Shown here one piece after another: positions 19,338 through 31,516 of a stretch of DNA of 64,000 bases (the stretch's first letter is position 1; each line of letters begins with the position of its first letter). Under the pieces are notes generated by a model. That model was given only the letters and a program-made list of their open reading frames with translations. It was not told where the DNA came from and did no database searches. Source of the stretch: Flavobacteriaceae bacterium (lineage in GTDB: Bacteria > Bacteroidota > Bacteroidia > Flavobacteriales > Flavobacteriaceae); the NCBI GenBank assembly GCA_020435965.1, contig JAGQYS010000010.1, positions 12,687 to 76,686 on the forward strand, given 5' to 3'. The position numbers and the translations under genes were made by a program.

Positions 19338-19757
19338 TTAACCAACAAACCCTTGCTTATTGTGTGTACCATCACAATAAGGTTTATTAGATGAACTACC
19401 ACATCTGCAAAAGGCTGTGGTTTTGGATTTGGTTTCTTCTTTTCCGTCTTTATGCACAACTTTTAAACTACCATGTACCAACAAAGGTCCATTTTCAAGA
19501 ACATCAACTTTAGTTTCAGAACTTGTGGTTTCCTCAGGTGTTTCATTATTCATATAATAACTCAAAGCACCTGAAGGACAAGCCTTAACCTGATTAACTA
19601 AGGCATCAGTTGCTGCAGCATCAATTTTTATCCAAGGTCGTTCTCTAGGTTGAAACACTTGTGGCAAACCTTTGGCACAAATTGCAGAATGAATACATTT
19701 CTCTGCTTCCCAAACCACTGTAACGTCTCCATTTGAATATTCTTTTATTTTTCCCAT
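19338..19757 (-). CDS. Fusion of a divergent 4Fe-4S mono-cluster domain and a CDGSH iron-sulfur domain
   Basis: 139 aa; N-terminal C-x-x-x-x-C...C-P pattern (EKCIHSAICAKG...KACPSGALSY) and C-terminal FCRCGSSSNKPYCDGTHNK (CDGSH signature). Confidence 0.72.
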   Translation of the reverse strand: MGKIKEYSNGDVTVVWEAEKCIHSAICAKGLPQVFQPRERPWIKIDAAATDALVNQVKACPSGALSYYMNNETPEETTSSETKVDVLENGPLLVHGSLKVVHKDGKEETKSKTTAFCRCGSSSNKPYCDGTHNKQGFVG

Positions 19758-19841
19758 ACCTTATTGTTTTTACTAAAGATACAAAAAAATTGAGCAGAAA
19801 TTAAGTATGTTTTTAAGCTTCATTTCTAAACTTATAATTCT

Positions 19842-19849
19842 TATTTTTG
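19842..19849 (+). promoter_or_regulatory. Bacteroidota-type -7 promoter box (TAttTTTG)
   Basis: TATTTTTG 25 nt upstream of the kynU TTG start at 19875. Confidence 0.4.
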
Positions 19850-19874
19850 TTGGAAACCGAAAAAACTACAACTC

Positions 19875-21143
19875 TTGTCAAACTACAAAACAGGTCTTGA
19901 TTACGCCAAAGAGCAAGATGAAAAAGACCCATTGGCATTGTATAGAAACAAATTCCACATTCCAAAAGATAATAACGGAAACGAACTTATTTATCTCTGT
20001 GGTAATTCTCTTGGACTACAACCAAAATCAACCAAAGACTATATAAATCAAGAACTTTTAGATTGGGCTAATCTAGGTGTTGAAGGTCATCTGGAAGCAA
20101 AAAACCCTTGGTTGCCTTATCATGAGTTTTTAGCTAAAAGCACAGCAAAATTAGTTGGCGCTAAGCCTATAGAAGTGGTTACTATGAATACCTTAACCAC
20201 CAATTTGCACTTAATGATGGTGTCGTTTTACCAACCAACTCCAGAACGTTACAAAATACTTATTGAGAGTGATGCTTTCCCTTCCGATAAATATGCTGTT
20301 GAATCCCAATTACGACACCATGGATTTGATGACAAAGAAGGATTAATTCTTTGGAAACCAAGACAAGGAGAAGAATTATTGCGTTATGAAGATTTGGAAC
20401 AGATTCTAGAGAATCAAGGCGACGAGATTGCATTGATTATGATAGGAGGCGTTAATTATTATACAGGACAATATTTCGATTTAAAACGAATCACGCAACT
20501 TGGGCATAAACATGGTTGTATGGTTGGTTTTGATTGTGCTCATGGCGCAGGAAATGTACAATTGAATCTTCATGATTCTGGAGCAGATTTTGCAGTATGG
20601 TGCACCTATAAATATTTAAATTCTGGACCAGGAAGTTTAAGTGGTTGCTTTGTACATGAACGTCATGCACATAACAAAGATCTTAACCGATTTACAGGTT
20701 GGTGGAGTCATAACAAGCAAACGCGCTTTAATATGAGACATGAATTTGATGTGCTACCAGGAGCCGAAGGTTGGCAATTGAGCAATCCTCCTATCCTATC
20801 TATGGCTGCTATAAAAGCATCATTGGATATGTTTAATGAAGTTGGTATTGAAAAGCTAACAGAAAAATCTAAAAAACTAACTGGTTATTTTGAGTTTCTG
20901 TTAAAGCAATTAGGTGAAGATATGATTAGAATAATTACTCCTGAAAATCCAAATGAACGTGGTTGTCAACTTTCCATACAAGTAAAAAGTGCCAATAAAG
21001 CATTACACAATAAATTAACTGAAGCTGGTGTGATTAGTGATTGGAGAGAACCTGATGTAATACGTTGCTCTCCTGTTCCTTTGTACAACAGTTTTGAAGA
21101 TGTTTTCAGAATGGTTGAAAAATTAAAGGAAATAGTAAACTAA
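19875..21143 (+). CDS. kynU: Kynureninase
   Basis: 422 aa; N-terminus ...DPLALYRNKFHIP, PLP region CTYKYLNSGPGS, overall kynureninase layout. TTG start; no in-frame ATG before the conserved N-terminus. Confidence 0.92.
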   Translation: MSNYKTGLDYAKEQDEKDPLALYRNKFHIPKDNNGNELIYLCGNSLGLQPKSTKDYINQELLDWANLGVEGHLEAKNPWLPYHEFLAKSTAKLVGAKPIEVVTMNTLTTNLHLMMVSFYQPTPERYKILIESDAFPSDKYAVESQLRHHGFDDKEGLILWKPRQGEELLRYEDLEQILENQGDEIALIMIGGVNYYTGQYFDLKRITQLGHKHGCMVGFDCAHGAGNVQLNLHDSGADFAVWCTYKYLNSGPGSLSGCFVHERHAHNKDLNRFTGWWSHNKQTRFNMRHEFDVLPGAEGWQLSNPPILSMAAIKASLDMFNEVGIEKLTEKSKKLTGYFEFLLKQLGEDMIRIITPENPNERGCQLSIQVKSANKALHNKLTEAGVISDWREPDVIRCSPVPLYNSFEDVFRMVEKLKEIVN

Positions 21144-21145
21144 GT

Positions 21146-21244
21146 TGTCATTCCGCACTGTCCCACTGAGCGCAGTCGAAGTGTGATGCGGAATCCATTA
21201 TAATTAAAAACTAAAAGTAGATTCCTGCCTTCGCAGGAATGACA
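21146..21244. repeat. REP/MITE-like palindromic element (TGTCATTCC...GGAATGACA termini)
   Basis: tgtcattccgca...gagcgcagtcga...tgcggaatcc...gattcctgccttcgcaggaatgaca: terminal inverted repeats plus two internal hairpins. Fills the whole kynU-kmo spacer. Confidence 0.85.
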
Positions 21245-22648
21245 AAAATGAAAGAAAAAAAACAAAACATACTCATCATTGGTGCAGGACTTTGCGGAAG
21301 CTTACTAGCACTTCGTTTAGGGCAAAGAGGCTATAATGTAACCGTTTACGAAATGCGTCCAGACCTAAGGAAAGTAGACATTTCTGCTGGACGTTCTATC
21401 AACTTAGCGTTTTCAGATAGAGGCATTAAGGCTATGAAACTTGTTGGCATTCAAGACAAAGTAAAAGCGCTTTGCATACCTATGAATGGTCGTATGCTAC
21501 ATGATAAAGATGGCAATACATTTCTTTCAAATTATAGTGGACGAGACCATGAATATATCAATTCAATATCGAGAGGAGGTTTAAATGCTCTATTATTGGA
21601 TGAAGCCGAAAAACATAAAAATGTAAAGATTCATTTTAATAGAAAATGTAAGTCGGTTGATTTTGAAAAAACCACAGCCTTATTTAAGGATTATGATGGC
21701 AATTCAGAATTTGTTGAAGATGCAGATGTAATTATTGCTACAGATGGAGCAGGATCAGCAATGCGCAAAAGTTATTTTTTAAGCAAAAAATTCTTGTTTA
21801 GTTTTTCACAAGATTGGCTTACTCATGGTTATAAAGAGTTGAGCATATTACCAACAAAAGATGGAGATTATAAAACGTATAAAAACGCTTTACATATTTG
21901 GCCTCGTGGCGATTTTATGCTCATAGCATTACCTAATTTAGATGGTAGTTTTACAGTTACTTTATTTTTACATCATAGTGAAGGTGAATACAATTTTAGT
22001 AATTTAACCACACCTGAGATTGTCACTAAATTTTTCCAAAAAGAATTTCCAGATGCACTGGAACTCATGCCAAATCTGGTTGACGATTTCTTTGAGAATC
22101 CAACAGCAGCACTAGGCACTGTAAAATGTTCTCCTTGGCATTATAAAGGCAACACATTGTTAATGGGAGATGCTGCACATGCCATCGTTCCTTTTTATGG
22201 ACAAGGTATGAATGCCTCATTTGAAGATGTGGTTGAATTTGACAAAGTTCTTGACCAGAACCTCGATAATTGGAAAGCCATTTTTACAGCTTATGAAAAG
22301 TCACGTAAAAAAGATACTGATGCCATTGCAGATTTAGCAATTGACAACTTTCATGAAATGAAAGACCATGTAGCCAACCCAATATTTCAGAAAAAGCGTA
22401 AATTAGAAATGGCCTTAGAGAAACATTTTCCTGATGACTATTCTTCTAAATATTCATTAGTAACGTTTAATGAAGATATAAACTACAGAGCGGCAATGCT
22501 AAGAGGTCGTGCACAAGATAAAGCCATATTAAACATGCTTTCAGATGGTGAAATTGATCTTAAAGGTGATTTAAAAAGCATATTAGAAAAAGTAAAACAT
22601 GAAACCGAGGCCATTCTACAAGACGATAGAATTGCTGGATTAAAATAA
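21239..22648 (+). CDS. kmo: Kynurenine 3-monooxygenase
   Basis: 469 aa; FAD fold ILIIGAGLCGSLLALRL, GDAAHAIVPFYGQGMN motif. ATG 21239 lies inside the repeat terminus; ATG 21248 (MKEKKQN) is an alternative start. Confidence 0.9.
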   Translation: MTKMKEKKQNILIIGAGLCGSLLALRLGQRGYNVTVYEMRPDLRKVDISAGRSINLAFSDRGIKAMKLVGIQDKVKALCIPMNGRMLHDKDGNTFLSNYSGRDHEYINSISRGGLNALLLDEAEKHKNVKIHFNRKCKSVDFEKTTALFKDYDGNSEFVEDADVIIATDGAGSAMRKSYFLSKKFLFSFSQDWLTHGYKELSILPTKDGDYKTYKNALHIWPRGDFMLIALPNLDGSFTVTLFLHHSEGEYNFSNLTTPEIVTKFFQKEFPDALELMPNLVDDFFENPTAALGTVKCSPWHYKGNTLLMGDAAHAIVPFYGQGMNASFEDVVEFDKVLDQNLDNWKAIFTAYEKSRKKDTDAIADLAIDNFHEMKDHVANPIFQKKRKLEMALEKHFPDDYSSKYSLVTFNEDINYRAAMLRGRAQDKAILNMLSDGEIDLKGDLKSILEKVKHETEAILQDDRIAGLK

Positions 22649-22654
22649 CCAACT

Positions 22655-23059
22655 ATGAGTGAAAAAACAGTAACACCTAGAGGCGCTTATCCACACACAA
22701 AACGTGCTGGCGATTTTATTTTTGTGTCAGGCACAAGTTCACGTCGTGCAGACAATACCATTGCAGGAGTTGATATTATTGACGAAATGGGAACAAAACG
22801 CCTGAATATTGAAGTACAAACCAGAGAAGTACTTCAAAACATAGAAAAAAACCTCATAAAAGTAGGTGCATCAATGAAAGACGTAGTTGATGTAACTTCC
22901 TTTTTAGTGAATATGAATGACTTTGCTGGCTACAATAAAGCCTATGCAGAATTTTTTAATGCCGAAACAGGACCAGCTCGAACTACTGTTGCAGTACACC
23001 AACTTCCACATCCTGATTTGGTGGTTGAAATTAAGGTAATGGCATACAAACCACAATAA
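22655..23059 (+). CDS. RidA/YjgF-family enamine/imine deaminase (candidate 2-aminomuconate deaminase)
   Basis: 134 aa; YjgF/RidA pattern ([11 protein letters not shown]...[12 protein letters not shown]...VEIKVMA). The deaminase role is inferred from context only. Confidence 0.85.
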
Positions 23060-23067
23060 AAATAGTC

Positions 23068-23142
23068 TGTCATTCCGACAGAGCGCAGCGACGAGGAATC
23101 TCATCATTGGATTTCTCAATTGTTCCTCATGTTGAAATGACA
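23068..23142. repeat. REP/MITE-like palindromic element, same family as 47715-47792
   Basis: tgtcattccgacagagcgcagcgacgaggaatctc...atttctcaattgttcctcatgttgaaatgaca; termini TGTCAT/ATGACA; shares the right half almost verbatim with the element at 47715. Confidence 0.85.
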
Positions 23143-23222
23143 ATACTTAATATTAAAATTACCTATATTTAGATAACCAACCTCAAACCAACCTTAGCTT
23201 AATCACTTTTTAATTATAAACT

Positions 23223-24005
23223 GTGATTAAATTTTTCCGTAATATTCGAAAGCAACTTCTTGGAGAAGGAAAAACTTCCAAATACTTTAAATACGCTGTT
23301 GGTGAAATACAATTAGTAGTTATAGGAATCCTTATTGCGCTTCAAATTAATAATTGGAACGAAAACAGAAAATTAGAAAGTAGCAAACACAAGCTATTGT
23401 TAGCCTTAAAAAAGGAATTGGTTAATAATAAAAATGCAATGGATGATTATCTACTTGAGATGCATAAGAGCAATGCCAAATTTAATAAAGTGCTTCTTTA
23501 TTCAGTTGGACAATATAATATCCCAACCGATAGCTTAAAATACTATCTTTCTAATATGGTCTACGGAAGAACATTATCTCTATTAAACTCAGTACAGGAA
23601 GAAGCTATTAATTCTGGTAAATTTGAACTGTTAAACGATAGCCTAAAACAAACTCTTTCTCAACTAAAAGATTATACCAATTCAAGAAATTATGTTCAAG
23701 AACAAGGTATAGATATGTATTATTTTAAAAGTGACAAACAGACAGATAAGTTAATTAATAGTTTATACATGTCTCCAGTTGTGCCTGATGAATTATCAAA
23801 TCATCCATTAATCCCTACACATCCTGATTTAATATTAAGCAATAGTGAATTATCGGTTTTACTTAAAGATGCTGATACTTATTTAACATTAAATAAAATA
23901 TACCTAACACATATAGCTGACGAAGTTTGGGTTAAACATGGTCTTTTTAGAATTACAAACAATACAATTGAATTGATTAAAAAAGAACTGAATGCTTATG
24001 ATTAA
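23223..24005 (+). CDS. MIKFF...NNWNE family single-pass membrane protein, copy 1 (unknown function)
   Basis: 260 aa; GTG start; VIKFFRNIRKQLLGEGKTSKYFKYAVGEIQLVVIGILIALQINNWNE anchor module, divergent C-terminal domain. Confidence 0.8.
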   Translation: MIKFFRNIRKQLLGEGKTSKYFKYAVGEIQLVVIGILIALQINNWNENRKLESSKHKLLLALKKELVNNKNAMDDYLLEMHKSNAKFNKVLLYSVGQYNIPTDSLKYYLSNMVYGRTLSLLNSVQEEAINSGKFELLNDSLKQTLSQLKDYTNSRNYVQEQGIDMYYFKSDKQTDKLINSLYMSPVVPDELSNHPLIPTHPDLILSNSELSVLLKDADTYLTLNKIYLTHIADEVWVKHGLFRITNNTIELIKKELNAYD

Positions 24006-24702
24006 GTTTTTTAGAAAAATACGTCACGGACTCATGAATGAAAACAAAATGGGAAAATACTTTAAATATGCTATTGGTGAGATTCTTCTGGTAGTTATAG
24101 GTATCCTCATTGCATTAGGCGTTAACAATTGGAACGAAAAAAGAAAAGAAAAAAACAAAGAAGTTGTTTACTTAAATAGGTTAATGTCCAATTTAAGTTA
24201 TGATGTGTCATTGTACAAACAAATCATGCAAAGAGATTCCTTATTATTGGAAAGCATGACAAACTTAGAGGATGGGCTCACATCTAATGTTCTTTTGGAT
24301 AAAGAAAACATAACAGAATTAGTAACTGGTTATAGATTTACTTCCAACAAAACTACTATTGACAATTTAATATCCTCTGGACAAATTGAAGTACTAAGAA
24401 GTCATTATTTAGTGGAAAAAATATTCATGTACTACAGAACTGTGGAAAACATAGATAATGGAACTGACGAGGCTATATCCAATAATAATCGAAATACATT
24501 TGGACCCTTAATAATTAATTCAGGATATTTTAAAAATTCAGAAATTGATTTATACACATTAAAAAAGGATACTTCATTATTAACATCTATACGATTTAAA
24601 AAATTTTTGCTAGATAATCAATTAAAATTATACAATGGTCAGTATCAATTAGCACAAGAGCTTATTGAAGACATTAGAAATGAACTAAATTATATAGATT
24701 AA
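23998..24702 (+). CDS. MIKFF...NNWNE family single-pass membrane protein, copy 2
   Basis: Track ORF starts at 23992 (MLM...). The family-conserved MIKFFRKIRHGL start is ATG 23998, whose ATGATTAA contains the stop (TAA 24003-24005) of copy 1. Confidence 0.8.
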   Translation: MIKFFRKIRHGLMNENKMGKYFKYAIGEILLVVIGILIALGVNNWNEKRKEKNKEVVYLNRLMSNLSYDVSLYKQIMQRDSLLLESMTNLEDGLTSNVLLDKENITELVTGYRFTSNKTTIDNLISSGQIEVLRSHYLVEKIFMYYRTVENIDNGTDEAISNNNRNTFGPLIINSGYFKNSEIDLYTLKKDTSLLTSIRFKKFLLDNQLKLYNGQYQLAQELIEDIRNELNYID

Positions 24703-25436
24703 TGATTAAATTCTTACGTCATTTCCGCAAAACACTAATCTCAGAAAACAAAATGGGTAAATACTTCAAATACGCTATTGGTGAAATTCTATTAGTAGTT
24801 ATAGGAATTCTTATTGCATTACAAATTAATAATTGGAACGAACAACGTAAAGCAGAAAAATTAGGTCAAGATTATTTAAAAGGCATTAAAAGTGACCTTA
24901 CTAAAGATTTTGTATTGCTCGACTCAATTCTAAAAGGATACAGTAATGATATTAGTCTTATTAATTCAATTGATAATGAGTTTGAAAAACCCATTTATGA
25001 AATTAACCCTAAGTATAAACAGGTCTTAATTGAACCTGACACCAGTAGAACAAAACACTTGTTTTATAGAGGGATTTCTTTTAGACCAATACAAGCAACT
25101 TATAGTTCTTTGGTGGCAGATGGTAAATCCAGTCTAATAAAAAACCGTGATCTTTTTGAAGTCATTCAAGAGATTTACGATGAACGCCACAACCGCATTG
25201 AAAGTGTTTATGAATCCTTTAAAGCTAGTGAAAATCGCATTCATTGGAACTATGCTTACGAAAAGAAAAACTGGAACTATACAGATTTATTAAACTCTAA
25301 AAACGACAAAATATTTTTAGACCTATTTAATTTCACCGAAATTAAATACTTCTATAGTCAACATTTACTAAACCTCAGAAAAAAAATGACAGAAGTTATT
25401 ACTTTAATTGATAAAGAAATAAACCAAATTAAATGA
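24702..25436 (+). CDS. MIKFF...NNWNE family single-pass membrane protein, copy 3
   Basis: 244 aa; MIKFLRHFRKTLISENKMGKYFKYAIGEILLVVIGILIALQINNWNE; TAATG overlap with copy 2. Confidence 0.8.
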   Translation: MIKFLRHFRKTLISENKMGKYFKYAIGEILLVVIGILIALQINNWNEQRKAEKLGQDYLKGIKSDLTKDFVLLDSILKGYSNDISLINSIDNEFEKPIYEINPKYKQVLIEPDTSRTKHLFYRGISFRPIQATYSSLVADGKSSLIKNRDLFEVIQEIYDERHNRIESVYESFKASENRIHWNYAYEKKNWNYTDLLNSKNDKIFLDLFNFTEIKYFYSQHLLNLRKKMTEVITLIDKEINQIK

Positions 25437-26227
25437 TTAAATTCTTCCGTCATATTAGAAAATCGTTAATCGAAAAGAACAAAATGGGAAAGTACTTTAA
25501 ATACGCTATTGGTGAAATCATTTTGGTAGTTATCGGAATTTTAATTGCCTTAGGTATTAATAACTGGAATGAAAATAGAAAACAAAAGCTTGAAGAAAAA
25601 ATTATATTAGCTCAATTACATACCGAGTTTAACAGCAACCTTAAACAATTAAATCAAAAAATTGAACTAAAAAAAGAAATCATTAATTCGGCTTTAAAAC
25701 TATTTAAATATATAGATTTTGAAGAACTTAGAAACAAAGATAGTATCGATTATTATTTAGCCAGAACCATCCCATACACAACATTCGATCCAATTGTAAA
25801 CGAAATAACACTGTCCAATCAATTAAACCTATTACAAAATGACAGTTTAAAACAAAAACTTACTTATTGGACTTCTGAATTAGCCGATAATAGAGAAGAT
25901 GAATTAACTTGGAAATACTACCGTGAAAATAAATACATTCCATTTTTAGTAGAACATTACCAACTTAGAACCATTAGAAATCTTGCCAATCAATCAAATT
26001 TATTAGAAAAATATTTAATCGAAGAAAACACTTCTAACATTGTTGCTAAAATTGGAAAATCGAAGTATGAAGAAAATTATAATACATTATTAAATCTGCC
26101 AAATTTTGAGGATCACATAGAAAGATGTGTCACACAAAATAGGCATTCGCTTAATCAATCGTTAATTTTAAGAAAAAAAATAATGCAAATTATTGGTATC
26201 TTGGATCATGAAATCAAGCATCGATAA
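25433..26227 (+). CDS. MIKFF...NNWNE family single-pass membrane protein, copy 4 (full-length paralogue of copy 8)
   Basis: 264 aa; ATGA overlap with copy 3. The C-terminal domain aligns along its whole length with the 50076-50879 product. Confidence 0.8.
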   Translation: MIKFFRHIRKSLIEKNKMGKYFKYAIGEIILVVIGILIALGINNWNENRKQKLEEKIILAQLHTEFNSNLKQLNQKIELKKEIINSALKLFKYIDFEELRNKDSIDYYLARTIPYTTFDPIVNEITLSNQLNLLQNDSLKQKLTYWTSELADNREDELTWKYYRENKYIPFLVEHYQLRTIRNLANQSNLLEKYLIEENTSNIVAKIGKSKYEENYNTLLNLPNFEDHIERCVTQNRHSLNQSLILRKKIMQIIGILDHEIKHR

Positions 26228-26234
26228 ATTAAAG

Positions 26235-27674
26235 ATGAACATCCAAAACTATATAAACGGAAATTTCTACAACCCAATACAAGATAATTGGTTAGATAAC
26301 TACAACCCTTCAAACGGAGAAGTTTATGGCAAAATTCCTAATTCATCCAAAGAAGATGTAGAAAATGCTTACATCGCAGCAAAATCTGCTTTTCCAAGTT
26401 GGAGTCAAACCACTTTAGATGAACGCAGCAGAATCTTGCTCAAAATTTCTGAGCTCATCGAAACTAATCTTGACAGATTAGCTGAAGCAGAAAGCAAAGA
26501 CAATGGCAAACCCATTTGGCTAGCCAAAGCAGTAGATATACCAAGAGCATCTAGCAATTTTCGTTTTTTTGCTAACGCCACAACGCAATTTGCGAGTGAA
26601 AGCCACGAAAGTGTTGGTCATGATGCTATAAATTACACTCTGCGTCAACCTATTGGAGTTGTGGGCTGTATTAGCCCTTGGAACCTTCCACTCTATTTAT
26701 TTACTTGGAAAATCGCTCCAGCCATTGCAGCTGGAAACTGTGTAGTTGCCAAACCAAGTGAAGTCACACCAATGACAGCTTATTTGTTAAGCGAAATTTG
26801 CAATGAAGCAGGTTTACCAAAAGGTGTACTAAACATTGTTCATGGCTTAGGAACTACTGCAGGACAAGCTATTATAGAACATCCAGATATTAAAGCCATT
26901 TCTTTTACTGGAGGCACTGCGACTGGAGCACATATTGCTAAAGTAGCTGCACCTATGTTTAAAAAATTATCATTAGAACTAGGTGGTAAAAACCCAAACA
27001 TCATTTTTGATGATTGCGATTATGAAGATATGCTTAATACAACTATTCGCTCTTCCTTTGGTAATCAAGGTCAAATATGTTTATGTGGTAGTCGTATTTT
27101 TGTTCAAGATACTATTTACGAGCAGTTCAAAAAAGACTTTGTAAATGTAGTCAGCAAACAAAAAGTAGGTCATCCATCAGCTCGTGACACAAAAATTGGA
27201 GCCTTAGTATCAAAATCTCATCTGGAAAAAGTGTTGAGTTATGTAGATATAGCAAAAGATGAAGGTGGAAAAATATTATATGGTGGTAATCAGCTTACTA
27301 TTGAAGGTTATGAAAATGGTTATTATATGGAACCAACCATTATTGAAGTACCAACTGATGAATGTCGTGTAAACCAAGAAGAAATTTTTGGTCCAATTGT
27401 AAGTATCATGCCTTTTAAAACTGAAGATGAAGTGTTACAAATGGCAAACAAAGTGAAGTATGGATTATCAGCCACATTGTGGACGAACGATTTAAAACGA
27501 ACCATGCGCATGACCAATCAATTACAAGCAGGAATTGTTTGGGTAAACACGTGGCTAATGAGAGATTTACGTACACCTTTTGGAGGTGTAAAAGACTCTG
27601 GAGTTGGCCGTGAAGGTGGTTTTGAAGCTTTGCGCTTTTTTACAGAAGCAAAGAATGTTTGTATAAAGTATTAA
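26235..27674 (+). CDS. NAD-dependent aldehyde dehydrogenase, probable 2-aminomuconate-6-semialdehyde dehydrogenase
   Basis: Track ORF begins at 26193, but the ALDH-typical N-terminus (MNIQNYINGNF...) starts at ATG 26235. ELGGKNP and catalytic FGNQGQICLCGSR motifs. Pathway role inferred from neighbours. Confidence 0.82.
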   Translation: MNIQNYINGNFYNPIQDNWLDNYNPSNGEVYGKIPNSSKEDVENAYIAAKSAFPSWSQTTLDERSRILLKISELIETNLDRLAEAESKDNGKPIWLAKAVDIPRASSNFRFFANATTQFASESHESVGHDAINYTLRQPIGVVGCISPWNLPLYLFTWKIAPAIAAGNCVVAKPSEVTPMTAYLLSEICNEAGLPKGVLNIVHGLGTTAGQAIIEHPDIKAISFTGGTATGAHIAKVAAPMFKKLSLELGGKNPNIIFDDCDYEDMLNTTIRSSFGNQGQICLCGSRIFVQDTIYEQFKKDFVNVVSKQKVGHPSARDTKIGALVSKSHLEKVLSYVDIAKDEGGKILYGGNQLTIEGYENGYYMEPTIIEVPTDECRVNQEEIFGPIVSIMPFKTEDEVLQMANKVKYGLSATLWTNDLKRTMRMTNQLQAGIVWVNTWLMRDLRTPFGGVKDSGVGREGGFEALRFFTEAKNVCIKY

Positions 27675-27792
27675 AAGCCCACCCCAACCCTCTCAAAGGG
27701 AGGAAGTGTGCTAGAAACTAGAAAATAATGTATAATTAACTCTACTTTCCCGTTAGAGAGTTCCTCCCCTTTGGGGAGGTTAGGAGGGGCTT
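27675..27792. repeat. Palindromic intergenic element (AAGCCCACCCCAACC...GGTTAGGAGGGGCTT type)
   Basis: aagcccaccccaaccctctcaaagggagg ... cctcccctttggggaggttaggaggggctt: long imperfect inverted repeat filling the ALDH-SDR spacer. Confidence 0.8.
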
Positions 27793-27795
27793 ATT

Positions 27796-28578
27796 ATGAA
27801 TCTAAACTTAAACAATAAATACGCATTAGTCTGCGGAAGCACAGCAGGAATTGGTAAAGCAACAGCAATAGCTTTAGCAAGTGAAGGTGTACAAGTAACA
27901 CTAATTGCAAGAAACGAAGCTAAACTAAAAACAGTTTTAACAGAGTTGCCTCAACAGCGAAAACATAACTACATTGTTGCTGATTTCTCAAACCCAACAG
28001 AATTAAAACAAAAGGTATTAAATTATATAAACGAGAAGCATGGCTTTCATATTCTAGTAAATAATACTGGAGGACCAAAAGGAGGTCCTGTGTTTTCAGC
28101 TGAAATTGAAGAATTTGAATCTGCTTTTACACAGCATCTAAAATGCAACCATGTATTAGCACAAGCTGTAGTTCCGTTTATGAAAAGTGAAGGTTTTGGA
28201 AGAATTATTAATGTCATTTCAACCTCAGTAAAACAACCTTTAGATGGACTTGGTGTGAGCAACACCATTCGTGGTGCTGTAGCCAATTGGAGCAAAACCT
28301 TAGCTAATGAATTAGGTCAATTTGGAATTACAGTAAACAATGTACTTCCAGGAGCCACAGGAACTGAACGTTTAACAGAAATCATAAAAAATAAAAGTGC
28401 TAAAACTGGAAGTTCTGAAGATGAAGCTGCCAATGCCATGAAAAATGCAGTGCCAGCAAAACGTTTTGCTAAACCTGAAGAACTAGCTGATGCCATTACG
28501 TTTTTAGCAAGTGAACGCGCAGCATATATTAACGGAATTAACCTTCCTGTTGATGGCGGAAGAACAAAATCTTTGTAA
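27796..28578 (+). CDS. Short-chain dehydrogenase/reductase with atypical S-x3-R in place of the Y-x3-K catalytic pair
   Basis: 260 aa; cofactor motif CGSTAGIGKA, NNTGG, Ser in NVISTSV. A gapless alignment to FabG places S and R (GVSNTIRGAV) where Tyr151 and Lys155 sit. Confidence 0.82.
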   Translation: MNLNLNNKYALVCGSTAGIGKATAIALASEGVQVTLIARNEAKLKTVLTELPQQRKHNYIVADFSNPTELKQKVLNYINEKHGFHILVNNTGGPKGGPVFSAEIEEFESAFTQHLKCNHVLAQAVVPFMKSEGFGRIINVISTSVKQPLDGLGVSNTIRGAVANWSKTLANELGQFGITVNNVLPGATGTERLTEIIKNKSAKTGSSEDEAANAMKNAVPAKRFAKPEELADAITFLASERAAYINGINLPVDGGRTKSL

Positions 28579-28712
28579 AGCCATCCTAACCTTCCCAAAG
28601 GGAAGGAAAATCAAAAGGATTGTATTATCTTTAAGCTTTATTAATGATGTTAAATACTAACTCAAAACACCCCGTTTGAGTTTTTCCCCTTTGGGGAAAT
28701 TAAAAGGGGCTT
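28579..28712. repeat. Palindromic intergenic element, same family as 27675-27792
   Basis: aagccatcctaaccttcccaaagggaagg ... ttcccctttggggaaattaaaaggggctt; fills the SDR-HAO spacer and creates the false N-terminal extension of ORF 28676. Confidence 0.8.
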
Positions 28713-28717
28713 ATATC

Positions 28718-29254
28718 ATGAGCAAATTATATTCTCCAATTAATTTTAAAGCCTGGATTGAAGAAAACAGACATCTTTTAAAACCACCAGTAGGCAATAA
28801 AGTAGTTTGGAAAGATGGCGATTTTATTGTTATGGTTGTTGGTGGCCCTAATAGCCGAAAGGATTATCACTACAACGAAACACCAGAATTTTTCTATCAA
28901 GTTGAAGGTGATATTGTCTTAAAAGTGATTGACAAAGGCACACCAAAAGACATTCATATTAAAGAAGGTGAAATTTTCTTATTACCTCCAAAAGTACCGC
29001 ATTCACCTCAACGTGGCGCTAATACAGTAGGTTTAGTGATTGAATACCCAAGAGAAAAAGGGGTTAAAGATGCCTTACTTTGGTTCTGCGAAAATTGCAC
29101 AACCAAATTATATGAAGAAGATTTTACTTTAGATAATATTGAAACTGATATGCCTGTAATTTTTGACAAATATTATGGCGATAAAGGTAAACGTACATGC
29201 CCAAATTGCAGAGAAGTGATGCAACCACCAAAAAAAATTCAGATAGAAGACTAA
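28718..29254 (+). CDS. nbaC: 3-hydroxyanthranilate 3,4-dioxygenase
   Basis: Family-typical start MSKLYSPINFKAWIEENRHLLKPPVGNK at ATG 28718. Cupin core YHYNETPEFFYQVEG...LLPPKVPHSPQR. C-terminal rubredoxin-like CENC...CPNC site. Confidence 0.92.
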   Translation: MSKLYSPINFKAWIEENRHLLKPPVGNKVVWKDGDFIVMVVGGPNSRKDYHYNETPEFFYQVEGDIVLKVIDKGTPKDIHIKEGEIFLLPPKVPHSPQRGANTVGLVIEYPREKGVKDALLWFCENCTTKLYEEDFTLDNIETDMPVIFDKYYGDKGKRTCPNCREVMQPPKKIQIED

Positions 29255-29265
29255 TTAAAAAATTC

Positions 29266-29336
29266 GTCATGACGAGGAAGTGTGACGAAGTAATCTCACA
29301 ATAAAAGATTGCCACGCCAAATGGCTCGCAATGACA
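29266..29336. repeat. REP/MITE-like palindromic element (GTCAT...AGATTGCCACG...CTCGCAATGACA type)
   Basis: gtcatgacgaggaagtgtgacgaagtaatctc...agattgccacgccaaatggctcgcaatgaca; its right half recurs at 45633-45665. Confidence 0.8.
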
Positions 29337-30425
29337 ACTATGGAAAAACGTAAATTACGAATAAACGGTCACTCACACTTGCTTCCATATCCTGAGGAAA
29401 TCCCCCAGTTTATGAAAGACAAAGGTATTTTTTGGGTAGATAAAGACCGGAAATTTATGCTTCAAAAAGATTGGAATCGCCCAATAACTGATTCTAGTTT
29501 TTTCTTAAATGAAAAATTAGCATGGATGGAGCGTTTCAAGATAGATCACGCTGTTGTTTTAAATTTGTCACAACTCTATGGTAATGGTTTGCGTGTAGAA
29601 GAAATGAAGCAAGCACTACGTTTTCAAAATGATTTTAATGCAAGAATACAACGAGAGAATCCTAGTAAATTCACTTGTGGCTTTGTGGTTCATCCTGGTT
29701 TTGTTAAAGGAGCTTGTTGGGAAATTGAGCGTTGTGTTGAAGAATTAGGAATGCAACTATTGTGCTTACCAACACATTATATGGACACCATTGGCACTTG
29801 GCGTTGTATTTTTGATGAAGAAAACGAACCCATTTTTGAACTTGCAAATAAGTATAATCTTGCGGTTGAAATCCACCCTTATGATGGTGAAAAATTCATC
29901 AAATTAGAAAATACTTCTTGGCGTTTTCACCTTATATGGATGTTGGCGCAATGTGCTGATGCCTATCACTTTTTAACTTTAAATGGTTATCAAGAAAAAT
30001 ATCCAAATATGCGTACGTGTTTTGCTCATGGAGGACAATTAGCACAAATAAACTTAGGAAGACGCATACAAGGGTTTGATGGACGACCAGATTTATTTGA
30101 AGGCAAACATCACCCAAGGAAGGCTGTTGGCCATAAAAACATTTTCTTTGACACTTTGGTTCATGACACTGGTGGACTGCAACTTTTAATTAAGAATCAA
30201 GGTTCAAAACAAGTCCTGATGGGATTAGACGACCCTTATCCTTTAGGGGAAATGGAGAGTGCCAAGCAAAGCTCGTATCCAGGTAAAATTTTAGATTTAG
30301 CCATGGAACGCCAAATCATTACAGAAGAAGAACGCGACGCCATTTGGGAAGACAATGTGATACAATGGTTGTGTGGTGGTGATGAAGAAGCAAAACAAAA
30401 ATTACTCAACAGAATATTAGATTAA
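29331..30425 (+). CDS. nbaD: Amidohydrolase-2 family decarboxylase, probable 2-amino-3-carboxymuconate-6-semialdehyde decarboxylase (ACMSD)
   Basis: 364 aa; blocks shared with human ACMSD as I recall it: HSHLLP, ERCVEELG, EIHPYD, CFAHGG, RPDLF, DTLVHD, DDPYPLGE. ATG 29331 is inside the repeat terminus; ATG 29340 is an alternative. Confidence 0.78.
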   Translation: MTTMEKRKLRINGHSHLLPYPEEIPQFMKDKGIFWVDKDRKFMLQKDWNRPITDSSFFLNEKLAWMERFKIDHAVVLNLSQLYGNGLRVEEMKQALRFQNDFNARIQRENPSKFTCGFVVHPGFVKGACWEIERCVEELGMQLLCLPTHYMDTIGTWRCIFDEENEPIFELANKYNLAVEIHPYDGEKFIKLENTSWRFHLIWMLAQCADAYHFLTLNGYQEKYPNMRTCFAHGGQLAQINLGRRIQGFDGRPDLFEGKHHPRKAVGHKNIFFDTLVHDTGGLQLLIKNQGSKQVLMGLDDPYPLGEMESAKQSSYPGKILDLAMERQIITEEERDAIWEDNVIQWLCGGDEEAKQKLLNRILD

Positions 30426-30435
30426 TGAAAAAGAA

Positions 30436-30510
30436 TGTCACCTCGAGCGCAGTCGAGAGGTCTTTTTTATAAAATAATTTTAATAGGTCTCGACTGCGCT
30501 CGACCAGACA
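30436..30510. repeat. REP/MITE-like palindromic element with GAGCGCAGTCGAGA core
   Basis: tgtcacctcgagcgcagtcgagaggtc...(AT-rich loop)...ggtctcgactgcgctcgaccagaca: 16-nt perfect arms (tcgagcgcagtcgaga); creates the false N-terminal extension of ORF 30435. Confidence 0.85.
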
Positions 30511-30515
30511 TTGTA

Positions 30516-31160
30516 ATGCACTTTTTACCTGAAAAAATTGATGATTATGTTGTAAAACATTCTGAAGAGGAACCAGAATTATTGCAACAACTTAATAGAG
30601 AAACCTTTCAAAAGATTTTGCAACCACGAATGTTGAGTGGTCATTACCAAGGTCGTGTTTTAAGCATGATATCTAAGCTGGTTAATCCGAAACATATTCT
30701 TGAAATAGGTACTTACACAGGTTATTCAGCTATATGTTTAGCTGAAGGTATGCAAAAATCTGGAGAATTACACACTATTGATATTAATGAAGAGTTGTAC
30801 GATTTTCAACGTAAGTATTTTGATAAATTTGGTTTTGGGCAACAAATCATTCAACATCTAGGAAATGCTTTAGATATCATTCCGAAACTTGATAAGACTT
30901 TTGATCTTGTTTTTATTGATGCTGACAAAGAAAATTACTCAAACTATTTTCATGCCATCATTGACAAGATGAATACTGGAGGAATCATTCTGTCTGATAA
31001 TGTGTTATGGAGTGGAAAAGTATTGGATACAGAATTTAAAAAAGAAGACAAATCCACACCTGCTTTAATTGAGTACAATAAACTATTAAAAGCAGATAAA
31101 CGAGTTGAAACCATCATTCTACCGATTAGAGATGGGTTAACTATTTCTAGAAAATTGTAG
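30516..31160 (+). CDS. Class I SAM-dependent O-methyltransferase (caffeoyl-CoA OMT-like)
   Basis: Start moved to ATG 30516 (MHFLPEKIDDYV...). LEIGTYTGYSAICLA SAM motif and FIDADKENY motif. Confidence 0.8.
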   Translation: MHFLPEKIDDYVVKHSEEEPELLQQLNRETFQKILQPRMLSGHYQGRVLSMISKLVNPKHILEIGTYTGYSAICLAEGMQKSGELHTIDINEELYDFQRKYFDKFGFGQQIIQHLGNALDIIPKLDKTFDLVFIDADKENYSNYFHAIIDKMNTGGIILSDNVLWSGKVLDTEFKKEDKSTPALIEYNKLLKADKRVETIILPIRDGLTISRKL

Positions 31161-31162
31161 TA

Positions 31163-31450
31163 CTATAACTTTCTTTTTACAGAACCTGTAAAATCGTCAA
31201 GTCCTTCTTTAACTTTTTTAACCTCCTCATTGATGCTACTGGCAACATCAGTATCAATGCCATGCTTATCAGCACTTTTAGCTATTTCGTGTTTAATATC
31301 ATTGGTAGCATCTTTTAGCGTACGCATTCCTTTACCAAGTCCACGCGCTATTTCAGGAATTTTATCTGCACCAAAAACCATAACCACAATAAAAAGCACC
31401 ACTGCGATTTCGGCTCCACTGATAAATAAAAAAGTTACTAGTTGTATCAC
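31163..31450 (-). CDS. tatA: Twin-arginine translocase subunit TatA/E
   Basis: 95 aa; TM plus amphipathic helix, VVLFIVVMVFGADKIPEIARGLGKGMR. Confidence 0.85.
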   Translation of the reverse strand: MIQLVTFLFISGAEIAVVLFIVVMVFGADKIPEIARGLGKGMRTLKDATNDIKHEIAKSADKHGIDTDVASSINEEVKKVKEGLDDFTGSVKRKL

Positions 31451-31486
31451 GTTACAAATATAGTGAGTAAGTTTAAATTGATTAAA

Positions 31487-31516
31487 AAAATACCGACTTT
31501 TAAAAGTCGGTATTTT
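31487..31516 (-). terminator. Perfect palindromic hairpin terminator downstream of the M1 peptidase gene
   Basis: aaaataccgactttt / aaaagtcggtatttt, flanked by A/T runs on both sides. Confidence 0.75.

Follow-up and report, generated by a model that had tools for sequence, protein, structure and literature searches.

A Tyr-less SDR of the Bacteroidota kynurenine cluster as a candidate 2-oxohex-3-enedioate reductase

Which enzyme do bacteria use to turn deaminated 2-aminomuconate into 2-oxoadipate? The carbon path from 2-aminomuconate to 2-oxoadipate has been open in tryptophan catabolism for decades, and the question is raised by one gene in a 64,000-nucleotide stretch of contig JAGQYS010000010.1 from a Flavobacteriaceae bacterium (assembly GCA_020435965.1), hereafter the window. 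The gene, at positions 27796 to 28578, encodes an SDR (short-chain dehydrogenase/reductase) that lacks the catalytic Tyr and Lys of its family and lies within a cluster of kynurenine-pathway genes. This kynurenine-cluster SDR of the Bacteroidota is the best candidate for the bacterial reductase that takes deaminated 2-aminomuconate to 2-oxoadipate. We favor its being an NADPH-dependent C=C reductase of 2-oxohex-3-enedioate (4-oxalocrotonate) that yields 2-oxoadipate, which would feed glutaryl-CoA. The gene named here is specific, clonable and assayable, and its comparative-genomic support is strong.

An earlier note on this DNA, made from the sequence alone, had proposed the SDR for this step, for which it knew of no assigned gene in the animal-type pathway. 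For animals this has since been overtaken. A June 2026 preprint reports that metazoan ASPDH reduces 2-aminomuconate to 2-aminohex-3-enedioate, and what remains is the fate of 2-oxohex-3-enedioate in bacteria and fungi. According to the same preprint, fungi use a bacterial-type 2-aminomuconate deaminase (AMD), with the later steps left open, and 2-aminomuconate decays spontaneously to 2-oxohex-3-enedioate; the preprint mentions neither SDRs nor Bacteroidota (bioRxiv 10.64898/2026.06.05.730449). An SDR gene is listed as syntenic with a 3-hydroxyanthranilate catabolic cluster in some Aspergillus species in one figure legend (PMC7842363, Fig. 5). For organisms that deaminate 2-aminomuconate, bacteria and fungi alike, a reductase of the resulting 2-oxohex-3-enedioate was not found in the searchable literature, whose coverage excludes subscription journals, so an earlier report is possible.

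The altered active site of the SDR

The gene and the residues on which the argument turns are the following (window coordinates; the orthologues are 63 proteins from Bacteroidota).

27796..28578, plus strand: Tyr-less SDR gene, 260 aa, ATG start
27835..27855, plus strand: Rossmann glycine motif G14-S-T-A-G18-I-G20; G14, G18 and G20 invariant among orthologues
27910..27912, plus strand: Arg39, after strand beta-2, predicted binder of the NADPH 2'-phosphate; kept in all orthologues and in 89% of the wider family
28135..28137, plus strand: His114, where the classical tetrad has Asn and the K-x3-Y motif of AerF has Lys; His in 61/63 orthologues
28219..28221, plus strand: Ser142, the classical catalytic-region Ser, kept; invariant in 63/63 orthologues
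28258..28272, plus strand: S155-N156-T-I-R159 (translation SNTIR), in place of Y-x3-K; S, N and R invariant in 63/63
28561..28563, plus strand: C-terminal Arg256, specific to the orthologue clade; Arg in 61/63 orthologues versus 25% of the wider family

The protein matches the Pfam families adh_short_C2 (PF13561, 143.5 bits against a gathering cut-off of 27) and adh_short (PF00106, 122.9 bits against 26.6), and all its Pfam matches are to SDR and Rossmann-type NAD(P)-binding families. The nearest NCBIfam model, NF006212 (PRK08339), scores 178.9 bits against a cut-off of 339; judged by sequence, the SDR is a relative of that equivalog and not a member. The Rossmann motif (GSTAGIG, residues 14-20), NNTGG (residues 89-93) and catalytic-region Ser described in the earlier note are all present. 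The two motifs are invariant across orthologues, and the Ser is Ser142 within ISTS (residues 141-144).

Alignment with MAFFT places the Tyr and Lys of a classical SDR, P0208 (...SAYSTAKAG...), on Ser155 and Arg159. This agrees with the gapless FabG alignment from which the earlier note had read Ser and Arg at the Tyr and Lys positions. The tetrad positions Asn-Ser-Tyr-Lys correspond to His114, Ser142, Ser155 and Arg159, so that Ser alone is retained and three of the four residues are replaced. The protein lacks the tetrad by which classical SDRs are recognized, and the replacements are kept in 61 to 63 of the 63 orthologues. Besides Ser142, Ser155, Asn156 and Arg159, the residues Arg192, Arg223 and His57 are invariant among the orthologues; His114 is also the commonest residue at its position in the wider family (39%).

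A Tyr from elsewhere in the chain, which the earlier note had named as a way of completing a classical site, was considered and, on the sequence alignment, rejected. The sole conserved Tyr in the sequence alignment is Tyr244, in the C-terminal AAYINGINLPVDGG motif, and position 118, which is Tyr in AerF (a C=C reductase of the SDR fold, discussed below), is N, A, S or G in the orthologues. Because Tyr244 gives way to Phe in 21% of the wider family, there appears to be no conserved Tyr that could serve as a substitute. The catalytic site would then consist of His, Ser, Ser-Asn and Arg, with neither the Tyr-Lys pair nor the displaced Lys-Tyr pair of the AerF type. An AlphaFold2 model calculated from a 66-sequence alignment has a pLDDT of 86.2 and a pTM of 0.88.

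Arg39 is presumably the residue that holds the 2'-phosphate, as in other SDRs, and three relatives that share the S-N-x-x-R motif (5va8, 5idy and 5vps) were solved with NADP(H). Because Arg39 is invariant and related structures are NADP(H)-bound, we infer that the cofactor would be NADPH. The restriction of Arg256 largely to the orthologue clade invites the speculation that it binds the distal carboxylate of the substrate.

The S-x3-R arrangement, which the earlier note had allowed might be a one-off, is a subfamily trait. A HMMER scan of 1.84 billion representatives (50%-identity clusters) returned 746 proteins at E<=1e-30, and S-N-x-x-R is present in 100 of the 115 full-length representatives among the best 150 of these, down to 36% identity. 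In alignments it is also seen in the solved structures 1o5i, 2z1n, 5va8 and 5vps. A FastTree phylogeny of 180 family members places the kynurenine-linked orthologues in a clade of their own, outside which fall AerF, the orphan proteins of the Protein Data Bank (PDB), and a 46%-identical paralogue encoded in the window's genome.

That paralogue (G000:C20:40914-41666; genomes, contigs and loci are given by our own handles) also carries S-N-x-x-R. It stands in tandem with a second SDR and adjoins a 119-aa cupin (locus L227 7138-9030). A relative in Gemmatimonadota (L233) has the order cupin-SDR-class IV aminotransferase, and a sister clade in Acidobacteriota has the order 3HCDH-methyltransferase-SDR. 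The cupin next to the paralogue and the cupin-SDR-aminotransferase order recall the BacB-BacG-BacF arrangement; by analogy this is only a hint that the family as a whole may prefer unsaturated 2-oxo acids.

Distribution and linkage of the SDR

An even sample of 401 Bacteroidota genomes was searched for the SDR, for 3-hydroxyanthranilate 3,4-dioxygenase (HAO, or 3-HAO) and for ACMSD. Six SDR candidates were scored per genome, and genomes without an SDR were rechecked with a degenerate DNA pattern for G-V-S-N-T-x-R-x-A; this recheck gave no match in G107, G112, G049 and G341, and the positive control, G219, was found. An SDR orthologue is present in 57 of the 63 genomes that have both HAO and ACMSD and in 15 of the 338 others, that is, in 6 of the 28 with HAO and no ACMSD and in 9 of the 310 without HAO. 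The SDR-positive genomes span at least 14 families, and within-family contrasts agree in direction. Among the HAO-only genomes are 14 from a sister genus that belongs to the window's family; none of these (0/14) has the SDR, and we interpret all of them as using HAO for NAD synthesis alone. The co-occurrence with ACMSD and AMSDH (2-aminomuconate-6-semialdehyde dehydrogenase) anticipated in the earlier note thus holds in so far as the SDR follows the catabolic branch and not HAO alone; it is not absolute, and the exceptions are weighed below.

A second pattern concerns the decarboxylase/aldolase route. A DmpG-type 4-hydroxy-2-oxovalerate aldolase occurs in 5 of the 401 genomes. It is present in three of the six HAO- and ACMSD-positive genomes that lack the SDR (G107, G049 and G341) versus none of the 57 that have it; the hypergeometric probability of this anti-association is 20/39711 (about 5e-4), a figure that overstates independence because two of the three belong to the same family. 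In G341 the gene forms an operon of the order RidA (AMD-type)-FAA_hydrolase-acetaldehyde dehydrogenase-DmpG, which is the classical proteobacterial outlet. A kynurenine catabolizer among the Bacteroidota thus carries one or the other, the SDR or the decarboxylase/aldolase route, as would be expected of an SDR that provides an alternative outlet for the product of AMD.

In the window's genome, which is 90% complete, DmpG, 4-oxalocrotonate tautomerase and an FAA_hydrolase protein of the size seen in the G341 operon (about 260 aa) were not found. Its FAA_hydrolase proteins are a 430-aa fumarylacetoacetase-like protein, with a partial near-duplicate on contig C78, and a 203-aa protein. Present in the genome are genes for a glutaryl-CoA dehydrogenase that scores 438 bits with 2eba, for a single 2-oxoglutarate dehydrogenase E1 and for tryptophan 2,3-dioxygenase (TDO), as well as nadC. 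Near-duplicate genes occur on the short contigs C82/C93 and C63/C78 (two acyl-CoA dehydrogenases that differ at few residues, and the full and partial fumarylacetoacetases), which suggests strain heterogeneity in this metagenome-assembled genome.

Physical linkage points in the same direction as co-occurrence. All 80 Flavobacteriaceae loci keep the order kynureninase (KYNU)-kynurenine 3-monooxygenase (KMO)-RidA-...-aldehyde dehydrogenase (ALDH)-SDR-HAO-ACMSD-O-methyltransferase (OMT) wherever the contig reaches, and 77 of them show ALDH, HAO and ACMSD. A set of 60 more distant orthologues, at 49-63% identity, represents many families and extends beyond a single class; here the partners found within 10 kb are HAO in 30, ACMSD in 26, KYNU in 26, an AMSDH orthologue in 23, KMO in 20 and RidA in 13, and 43 of the 60 loci have at least one kynurenine gene within that distance. 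These loci comprise at least six gene orders or orientations, for example SDR-ALDH-RidA-HAO-ACMSD-KYNU-KMO, an SDR divergent from HAO-ACMSD, and ALDH-SDR divergent from HAO-KYNU-KMO. The linkage is kept although the ACMSD of the distant lineages is only about 30% identical to that of the window. When neighboring open reading frames (ORFs) were clustered without labels, the only recurrent partners were kynurenine genes and TDO (7 loci).

These distributions bear on two other explanations of the SDR. It could serve a function unrelated to tryptophan catabolism, for instance in housekeeping or in reducing unsaturated 2-oxo acids generally, and be carried along in the cluster. Such a role would fit the nine HAO-less genomes, which hold intact orthologues with all the invariant residues in unrelated neighborhoods, the contexts of the sister clades in other phyla, and the cupin-linked paralogue. 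Passive hitch-hiking is not expected to give the pattern seen, in which linkage persists through the different gene orders in many families, the SDR was not seen in those genomes of the same family that have HAO for NAD only, and the DmpG route replaces it in half of the SDR-less catabolic genomes. We regard this explanation as very unlikely.

The SDR could instead be a carbonyl reductase or dehydrogenase that acts, in detoxification or a side branch, on a labile intermediate: 2-aminomuconate semialdehyde, 2-hydroxymuconate semialdehyde, or the 2-keto group of 2-oxoadipate. Carbonyl reductases make up the majority of SDRs, and in one family (f39) the SDR adjoins HAO-ACMSD while the AMSDH orthologue lies elsewhere in the genome, a core unit that would suit a substrate arising directly from the action of HAO and ACMSD. 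Against this, the Tyr/Lys pair used by carbonyl-reducing SDRs is replaced in every orthologue, all five f39 genomes tested retain AMSDH, and the complementary distribution with DmpG points to a step after 2-aminomuconate and not before it. A carbonyl-reducing role therefore seems to us an outside chance.

Reduced versions of the system occur as well. In a Flavobacteriaceae genome, G115 (locus L201, G115:C30:24000-43900), the cluster is reduced to KYNU-KMO-...-ACMSD-OMT, and another HAO copy lies elsewhere. RidA, ALDH, the SDR and the linked HAO are missing together, so these four genes seem to have been lost as a unit. G117 has only a 46% SDR.

The gene cluster and the proposed reaction

The SDR gene lies between an AMSDH-like ALDH gene and the 3-HAO gene, as the earlier note had it. 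The cluster in the window comprises, besides the SDR, the following genes.

19875..21143, plus strand: kynureninase (KYNU); TIGR01814, 460.9 bits, above cut-off
21239..22648, plus strand: kynurenine 3-monooxygenase-like flavoprotein (KMO); Pfam FAD_binding_3, syntenic in 72/80 close loci
22655..23059, plus strand: RidA-family 2-aminomuconate deaminase (AMD); PDB 6izh, 181 bits, E 7e-53, in 73/80 close loci
26193..27674, plus strand: 2-aminomuconate-6-semialdehyde dehydrogenase (AMSDH); best PDB matches are AMSDH, 4i1w first, 450 bits
28676..29254, plus strand: 3-hydroxyanthranilate 3,4-dioxygenase (3-HAO); NF009763, 262.9 bits, above cut-off
29331..30425, plus strand: amidohydrolase, ACMSD; 13/13 PDB matches are ACMSD, best 91 bits (distant)
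30435..31160, plus strand: class I O-methyltransferase (Methyltransf_3, catechol-type) at the cluster end; Pfam 180 bits, 71/80 loci

The identity of these neighbors means that all the steps leading from kynurenine to deaminated 2-aminomuconate are encoded in the cluster, along with the SDR. The partner that the earlier note had called a RidA-like deaminase matches a solved 2-aminomuconate deaminase, 6izh, and the next RidA-family structure follows at only 71 bits; the compound offered to the SDR would therefore be the deaminated 2-oxo acid. Together with the conservation of S-x3-R, the co-occurrence and the lack of a substitute Tyr, this supports the earlier proposal of the SDR as a candidate for 2-oxohexenedioate reduction; each computational check that the note had suggested gave a favorable result.

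In the route that we infer, substrate, product, cofactor and the parts played by the active-site residues would be as follows. Tryptophan would be converted through kynurenine and 3-hydroxykynurenine to 3-hydroxyanthranilate by TDO, encoded elsewhere in the genome, and by KMO and KYNU of the cluster. HAO would then produce 2-amino-3-carboxymuconate semialdehyde (ACMS), ACMSD would convert ACMS to 2-aminomuconate semialdehyde, and AMSDH would oxidize the semialdehyde to 2-aminomuconate. The RidA-type deaminase, or spontaneous decay, would give 2-hydroxymuconate/2-oxohex-3-enedioate. With NADPH as the donor, the SDR would add hydride at C4 of the alpha,beta-unsaturated 2-oxo acid so formed, and protonation of the enolate at C3 would give 2-oxoadipate. 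Ser142, Ser155, Asn156 and Arg159 may polarize the 2-oxo-carboxylate, with His114 as a possible proton relay and Arg192/Arg256 as putative carboxylate ligands. The 2-oxoglutarate/2-oxoadipate dehydrogenase complex would convert 2-oxoadipate to glutaryl-CoA, which glutaryl-CoA dehydrogenase would take onward. As an ene-reductase, the SDR would be new both in its pathway role and in the make-up of its active site, and an ene-reductase for dicarboxylic 2-oxo acids could find use in adipate-type biocatalysis.

The SDR could instead reduce 2-aminomuconate itself, or its imine tautomer, to 2-aminohex-3-enedioate or 2-aminoadipate, as an analogue of ASPDH, the metazoan 2-aminomuconate reductase (AMR), with RidA as a mere scavenger. 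Metazoa do possess such an NAD(P)H-dependent reductase, and among the distant loci RidA is near the SDR less often than the ALDH that makes 2-aminomuconate or HAO (13 versus 23 and 30 of 60). The looser linkage of RidA is also accounted for by the spontaneous decay of 2-aminomuconate to 2-oxohex-3-enedioate. The close match of the cluster RidA to a 2-aminomuconate deaminase and its retention in Flavobacteriaceae speak against reduction of the amino compound, as does the mutual exclusion of AMD and AMR in eukaryotes. The nearest characterized relatives of the SDR reduce C=C bonds, imine or enamine reduction is not known for any of them, and no aminotransferase or deaminase for an amino-acid product recurs in the SDR neighborhoods. 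Direct reduction of 2-aminomuconate is thus an improbable account of the SDR.

Several observations weigh against the assignment to 2-oxohex-3-enedioate that we prefer. The counts in the 401 genomes are uncorrected for shared ancestry. Of the 72 genomes that bear an orthologue, nine lack HAO, six of them in one family; three of the HAO-less genomes keep only the KYNU neighbor, and G163 keeps only the methyltransferase. At loci L179, L186 and L188 (in G287, G367 and G063, HAO-less members of one family), the SDR directly adjoins a somewhat divergent kynureninase, which reduction of 2-oxohex-3-enedioate does not explain; the order at L188 is OMP decarboxylase-KYNU-SDR-FMN_bind_2. Orthologues in HAO-less genomes imply that the SDR may have another or a broader substrate. 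Conversely, two genomes combine ACMSD with an AMSDH-type ALDH (66% and 48% identity) and have no SDR: G107, whose AMSDH is the one at 66%, and G112, which has a KMO-KYNU-ACMSD-HAO-RidA-ALDH cluster and lacks DmpG as well. When the G112 cluster and the surroundings of the solitary AMSDH gene of G107 were searched for a substitute enzyme, nothing informative turned up. The sister clades in Acidobacteriota and Gemmatimonadota show no linkage to kynurenine genes, so that the evidence stems from one phylum. In the AlphaFold2 model, the loop 144-154 beside the active site has a confidence below 50. Finally, His114 and Asn118 take the places of the AerF K-x3-Y residues, and the mechanism is therefore not simply transferable from BacG and AerF.

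Some features of the other cluster genes deserve mention. The AMSDH-like ALDH scores 563 bits with TIGR03216, below the cut-off of 693. The ORF starts of the ALDH and 3-HAO genes are likely over-extended because alignments to homologues and PDB entries begin only at about residue 15-18 (about residue 17 for 3-HAO homologues). The ALDH probably starts at ATG 26235 and not at the called TTG 26193, where it would overlap the last DUF6090 gene, and 3-HAO probably at ATG 28718 and not at TTG 28676. The ACMSD gene at 29331-30425 matches Pfam Amidohydro_2 only at E 9e-10 and no NCBIfam model. The Flavobacteriaceae ACMSD is strongly divergent: it is 90-96% identical across most sampled genera of the family, yet in most other Bacteroidota the ACMSD-like gene shares only about 27-32% identity with it, and its orthologues outside the family were seen in three sampled genomes only (G107, G137 and G083). 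The O-methyltransferase could act on an o-aminophenol such as 3-hydroxyanthranilate or 3-hydroxykynurenine; it still adjoins the SDR in G163 (L203 8024-8665), where the rest of the pathway is lost. A scan of 19500-31500 for sigma-70 promoters and terminators found sites no more frequently than in shuffled sequence; Bacteroidota promoters differ from this type.

Comparison with characterized enzymes and routes

The nearest characterized enzymes are AerF of Microcystis aeruginosa (6jh7/6jha/6jhb) and BacG, or YwfH, of Bacillus subtilis (3u49/3u4c). Both belong to the SDRs and use NADPH to reduce a C=C bond of dihydro-4-hydroxyphenylpyruvate, the former in aeruginosin (Choi) and the latter in bacilysin biosynthesis. 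In phmmer searches AerF (6jh7) matches the window SDR at E 7e-37 and BacG (3u49) at E 4e-29, with about 28-33% identity. Of the seven closest PDB sequence matches, these two alone have a known function; the classical sorbose reductase 3ai1 comes next at E 9e-29. In a Foldseek search of the PDB with the AlphaFold2 model, AerF takes ranks 1 to 3 (TM scores of 0.90-0.92) and YwfH rank 13. The AerF entry 6jhb contains NADPH and 4-hydroxyphenylpyruvate.

BacG converts 3E-ex-H2HPP to 4S-H4HPP, the substrate named in a review being a 2-oxo acid with a C3 double bond. In chemical terms this is the addition of hydride to a C=C bond conjugated with a 2-oxo acid. By analogy, the conversion of 2-oxohex-3-enedioate to 2-oxoadipate would need the same transformation. 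The earlier note had pointed to dienoyl-CoA reductases as C=C reductases without the classical Tyr. The precedent of C=C reduction within the fold stands with AerF and BacG, and dienoyl-CoA reductase is not the best instance of it. Said to lack the classical Tyr, the 2,4-dienoyl-CoA reductases (DECR) reduce C=C bonds with an SDR fold, and their substrates are CoA thioesters; as nearest precedent they were rejected, since none occurs in the top 60 PDB matches by sequence or the top 50 by fold.

The likeness to AerF and BacG has limits. Like the window SDR, AerF has Ser at position 155 and neither Tyr nor Lys at the classical positions. AerF differs in that its K-x3-Y residues align with His114 and Asn118 and an Asn with Arg159, so that Ser155 alone is common to the two. 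The catalytic tetrad of BacG is reportedly Lys113-Tyr117-Ser155-Asn158. The genomic partners of AerF and BacG are prephenate decarboxylase and a cupin, whereas those of the window SDR are kynurenine-pathway genes only. The substrates also differ, being cyclic dienyl pyruvates for AerF and BacG and a linear C6 dicarboxylate in the proposal for the window SDR, and AerF and BacG sit in a different clade of the tree from the kynurenine-linked SDRs. Some annotation pipelines label Bacteroidota orthologues 'BacG' or 'YwfH' by best match. The proposed function would correct such generic labels ('FabG', 'BacG', 'SDR family oxidoreductase') across the Bacteroidota.

The best PDB sequence matches (E 1e-38 to 1e-32) are uncharacterized SDRs from structural genomics: TM1169 (1o5i), APE0912 (2z1n) and the Burkholderia proteins 5va8, 5vps and 5idx/5idy. 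They share S-N-x-x-R, Ser142, Arg192 and Arg223 with the window SDR, and several are NADP(H)-bound. They are without Arg256 and mostly without Thr143 and Gly153; His57 is found only in 1o5i, and His114 in none. If the proposal is true, it offers the first functional handle on a large Tyr-less S-N-x-x-R subfamily that includes these orphan crystal structures.

Metazoan ASPDH resembles the window SDR in that it carries out an NAD(P)H-dependent reduction right after 2-aminomuconate and was found by its co-evolution with HAAO and ACMSD. It belongs to the aspartate dehydrogenase family, which is unrelated to SDRs and of which the window protein is no member, and it acts on 2-aminomuconate itself to give 2-aminohex-3-enedioate, an unsaturated amino acid. 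ASPDH and AMD are mutually exclusive, whereas SDRs of the window type co-occur with AMD.

The proteobacterial route, by way of 4-oxalocrotonate decarboxylase, 2-oxopent-4-enoate hydratase, the aldolase DmpG and the acetaldehyde dehydrogenase DmpF, shares its entry compound, the product of AMD, with the pathway proposed here. It leads through decarboxylation and aldol cleavage to pyruvate and acetyl-CoA, versus the reduction to 2-oxoadipate proposed for the SDR. We put at about even chances the wider claim that Bacteroidota have a third, previously undescribed outlet for 2-aminomuconate, consisting of a RidA deaminase and a dedicated ene-reductase, with a new catalytic solution in the SDR fold and a first function for the subfamily. 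If it is true, these bacteria reach the outcome of the textbook 'glutarate pathway' by a route of their own, beside the metazoan ASPDH route and the proteobacterial decarboxylase/aldolase route.

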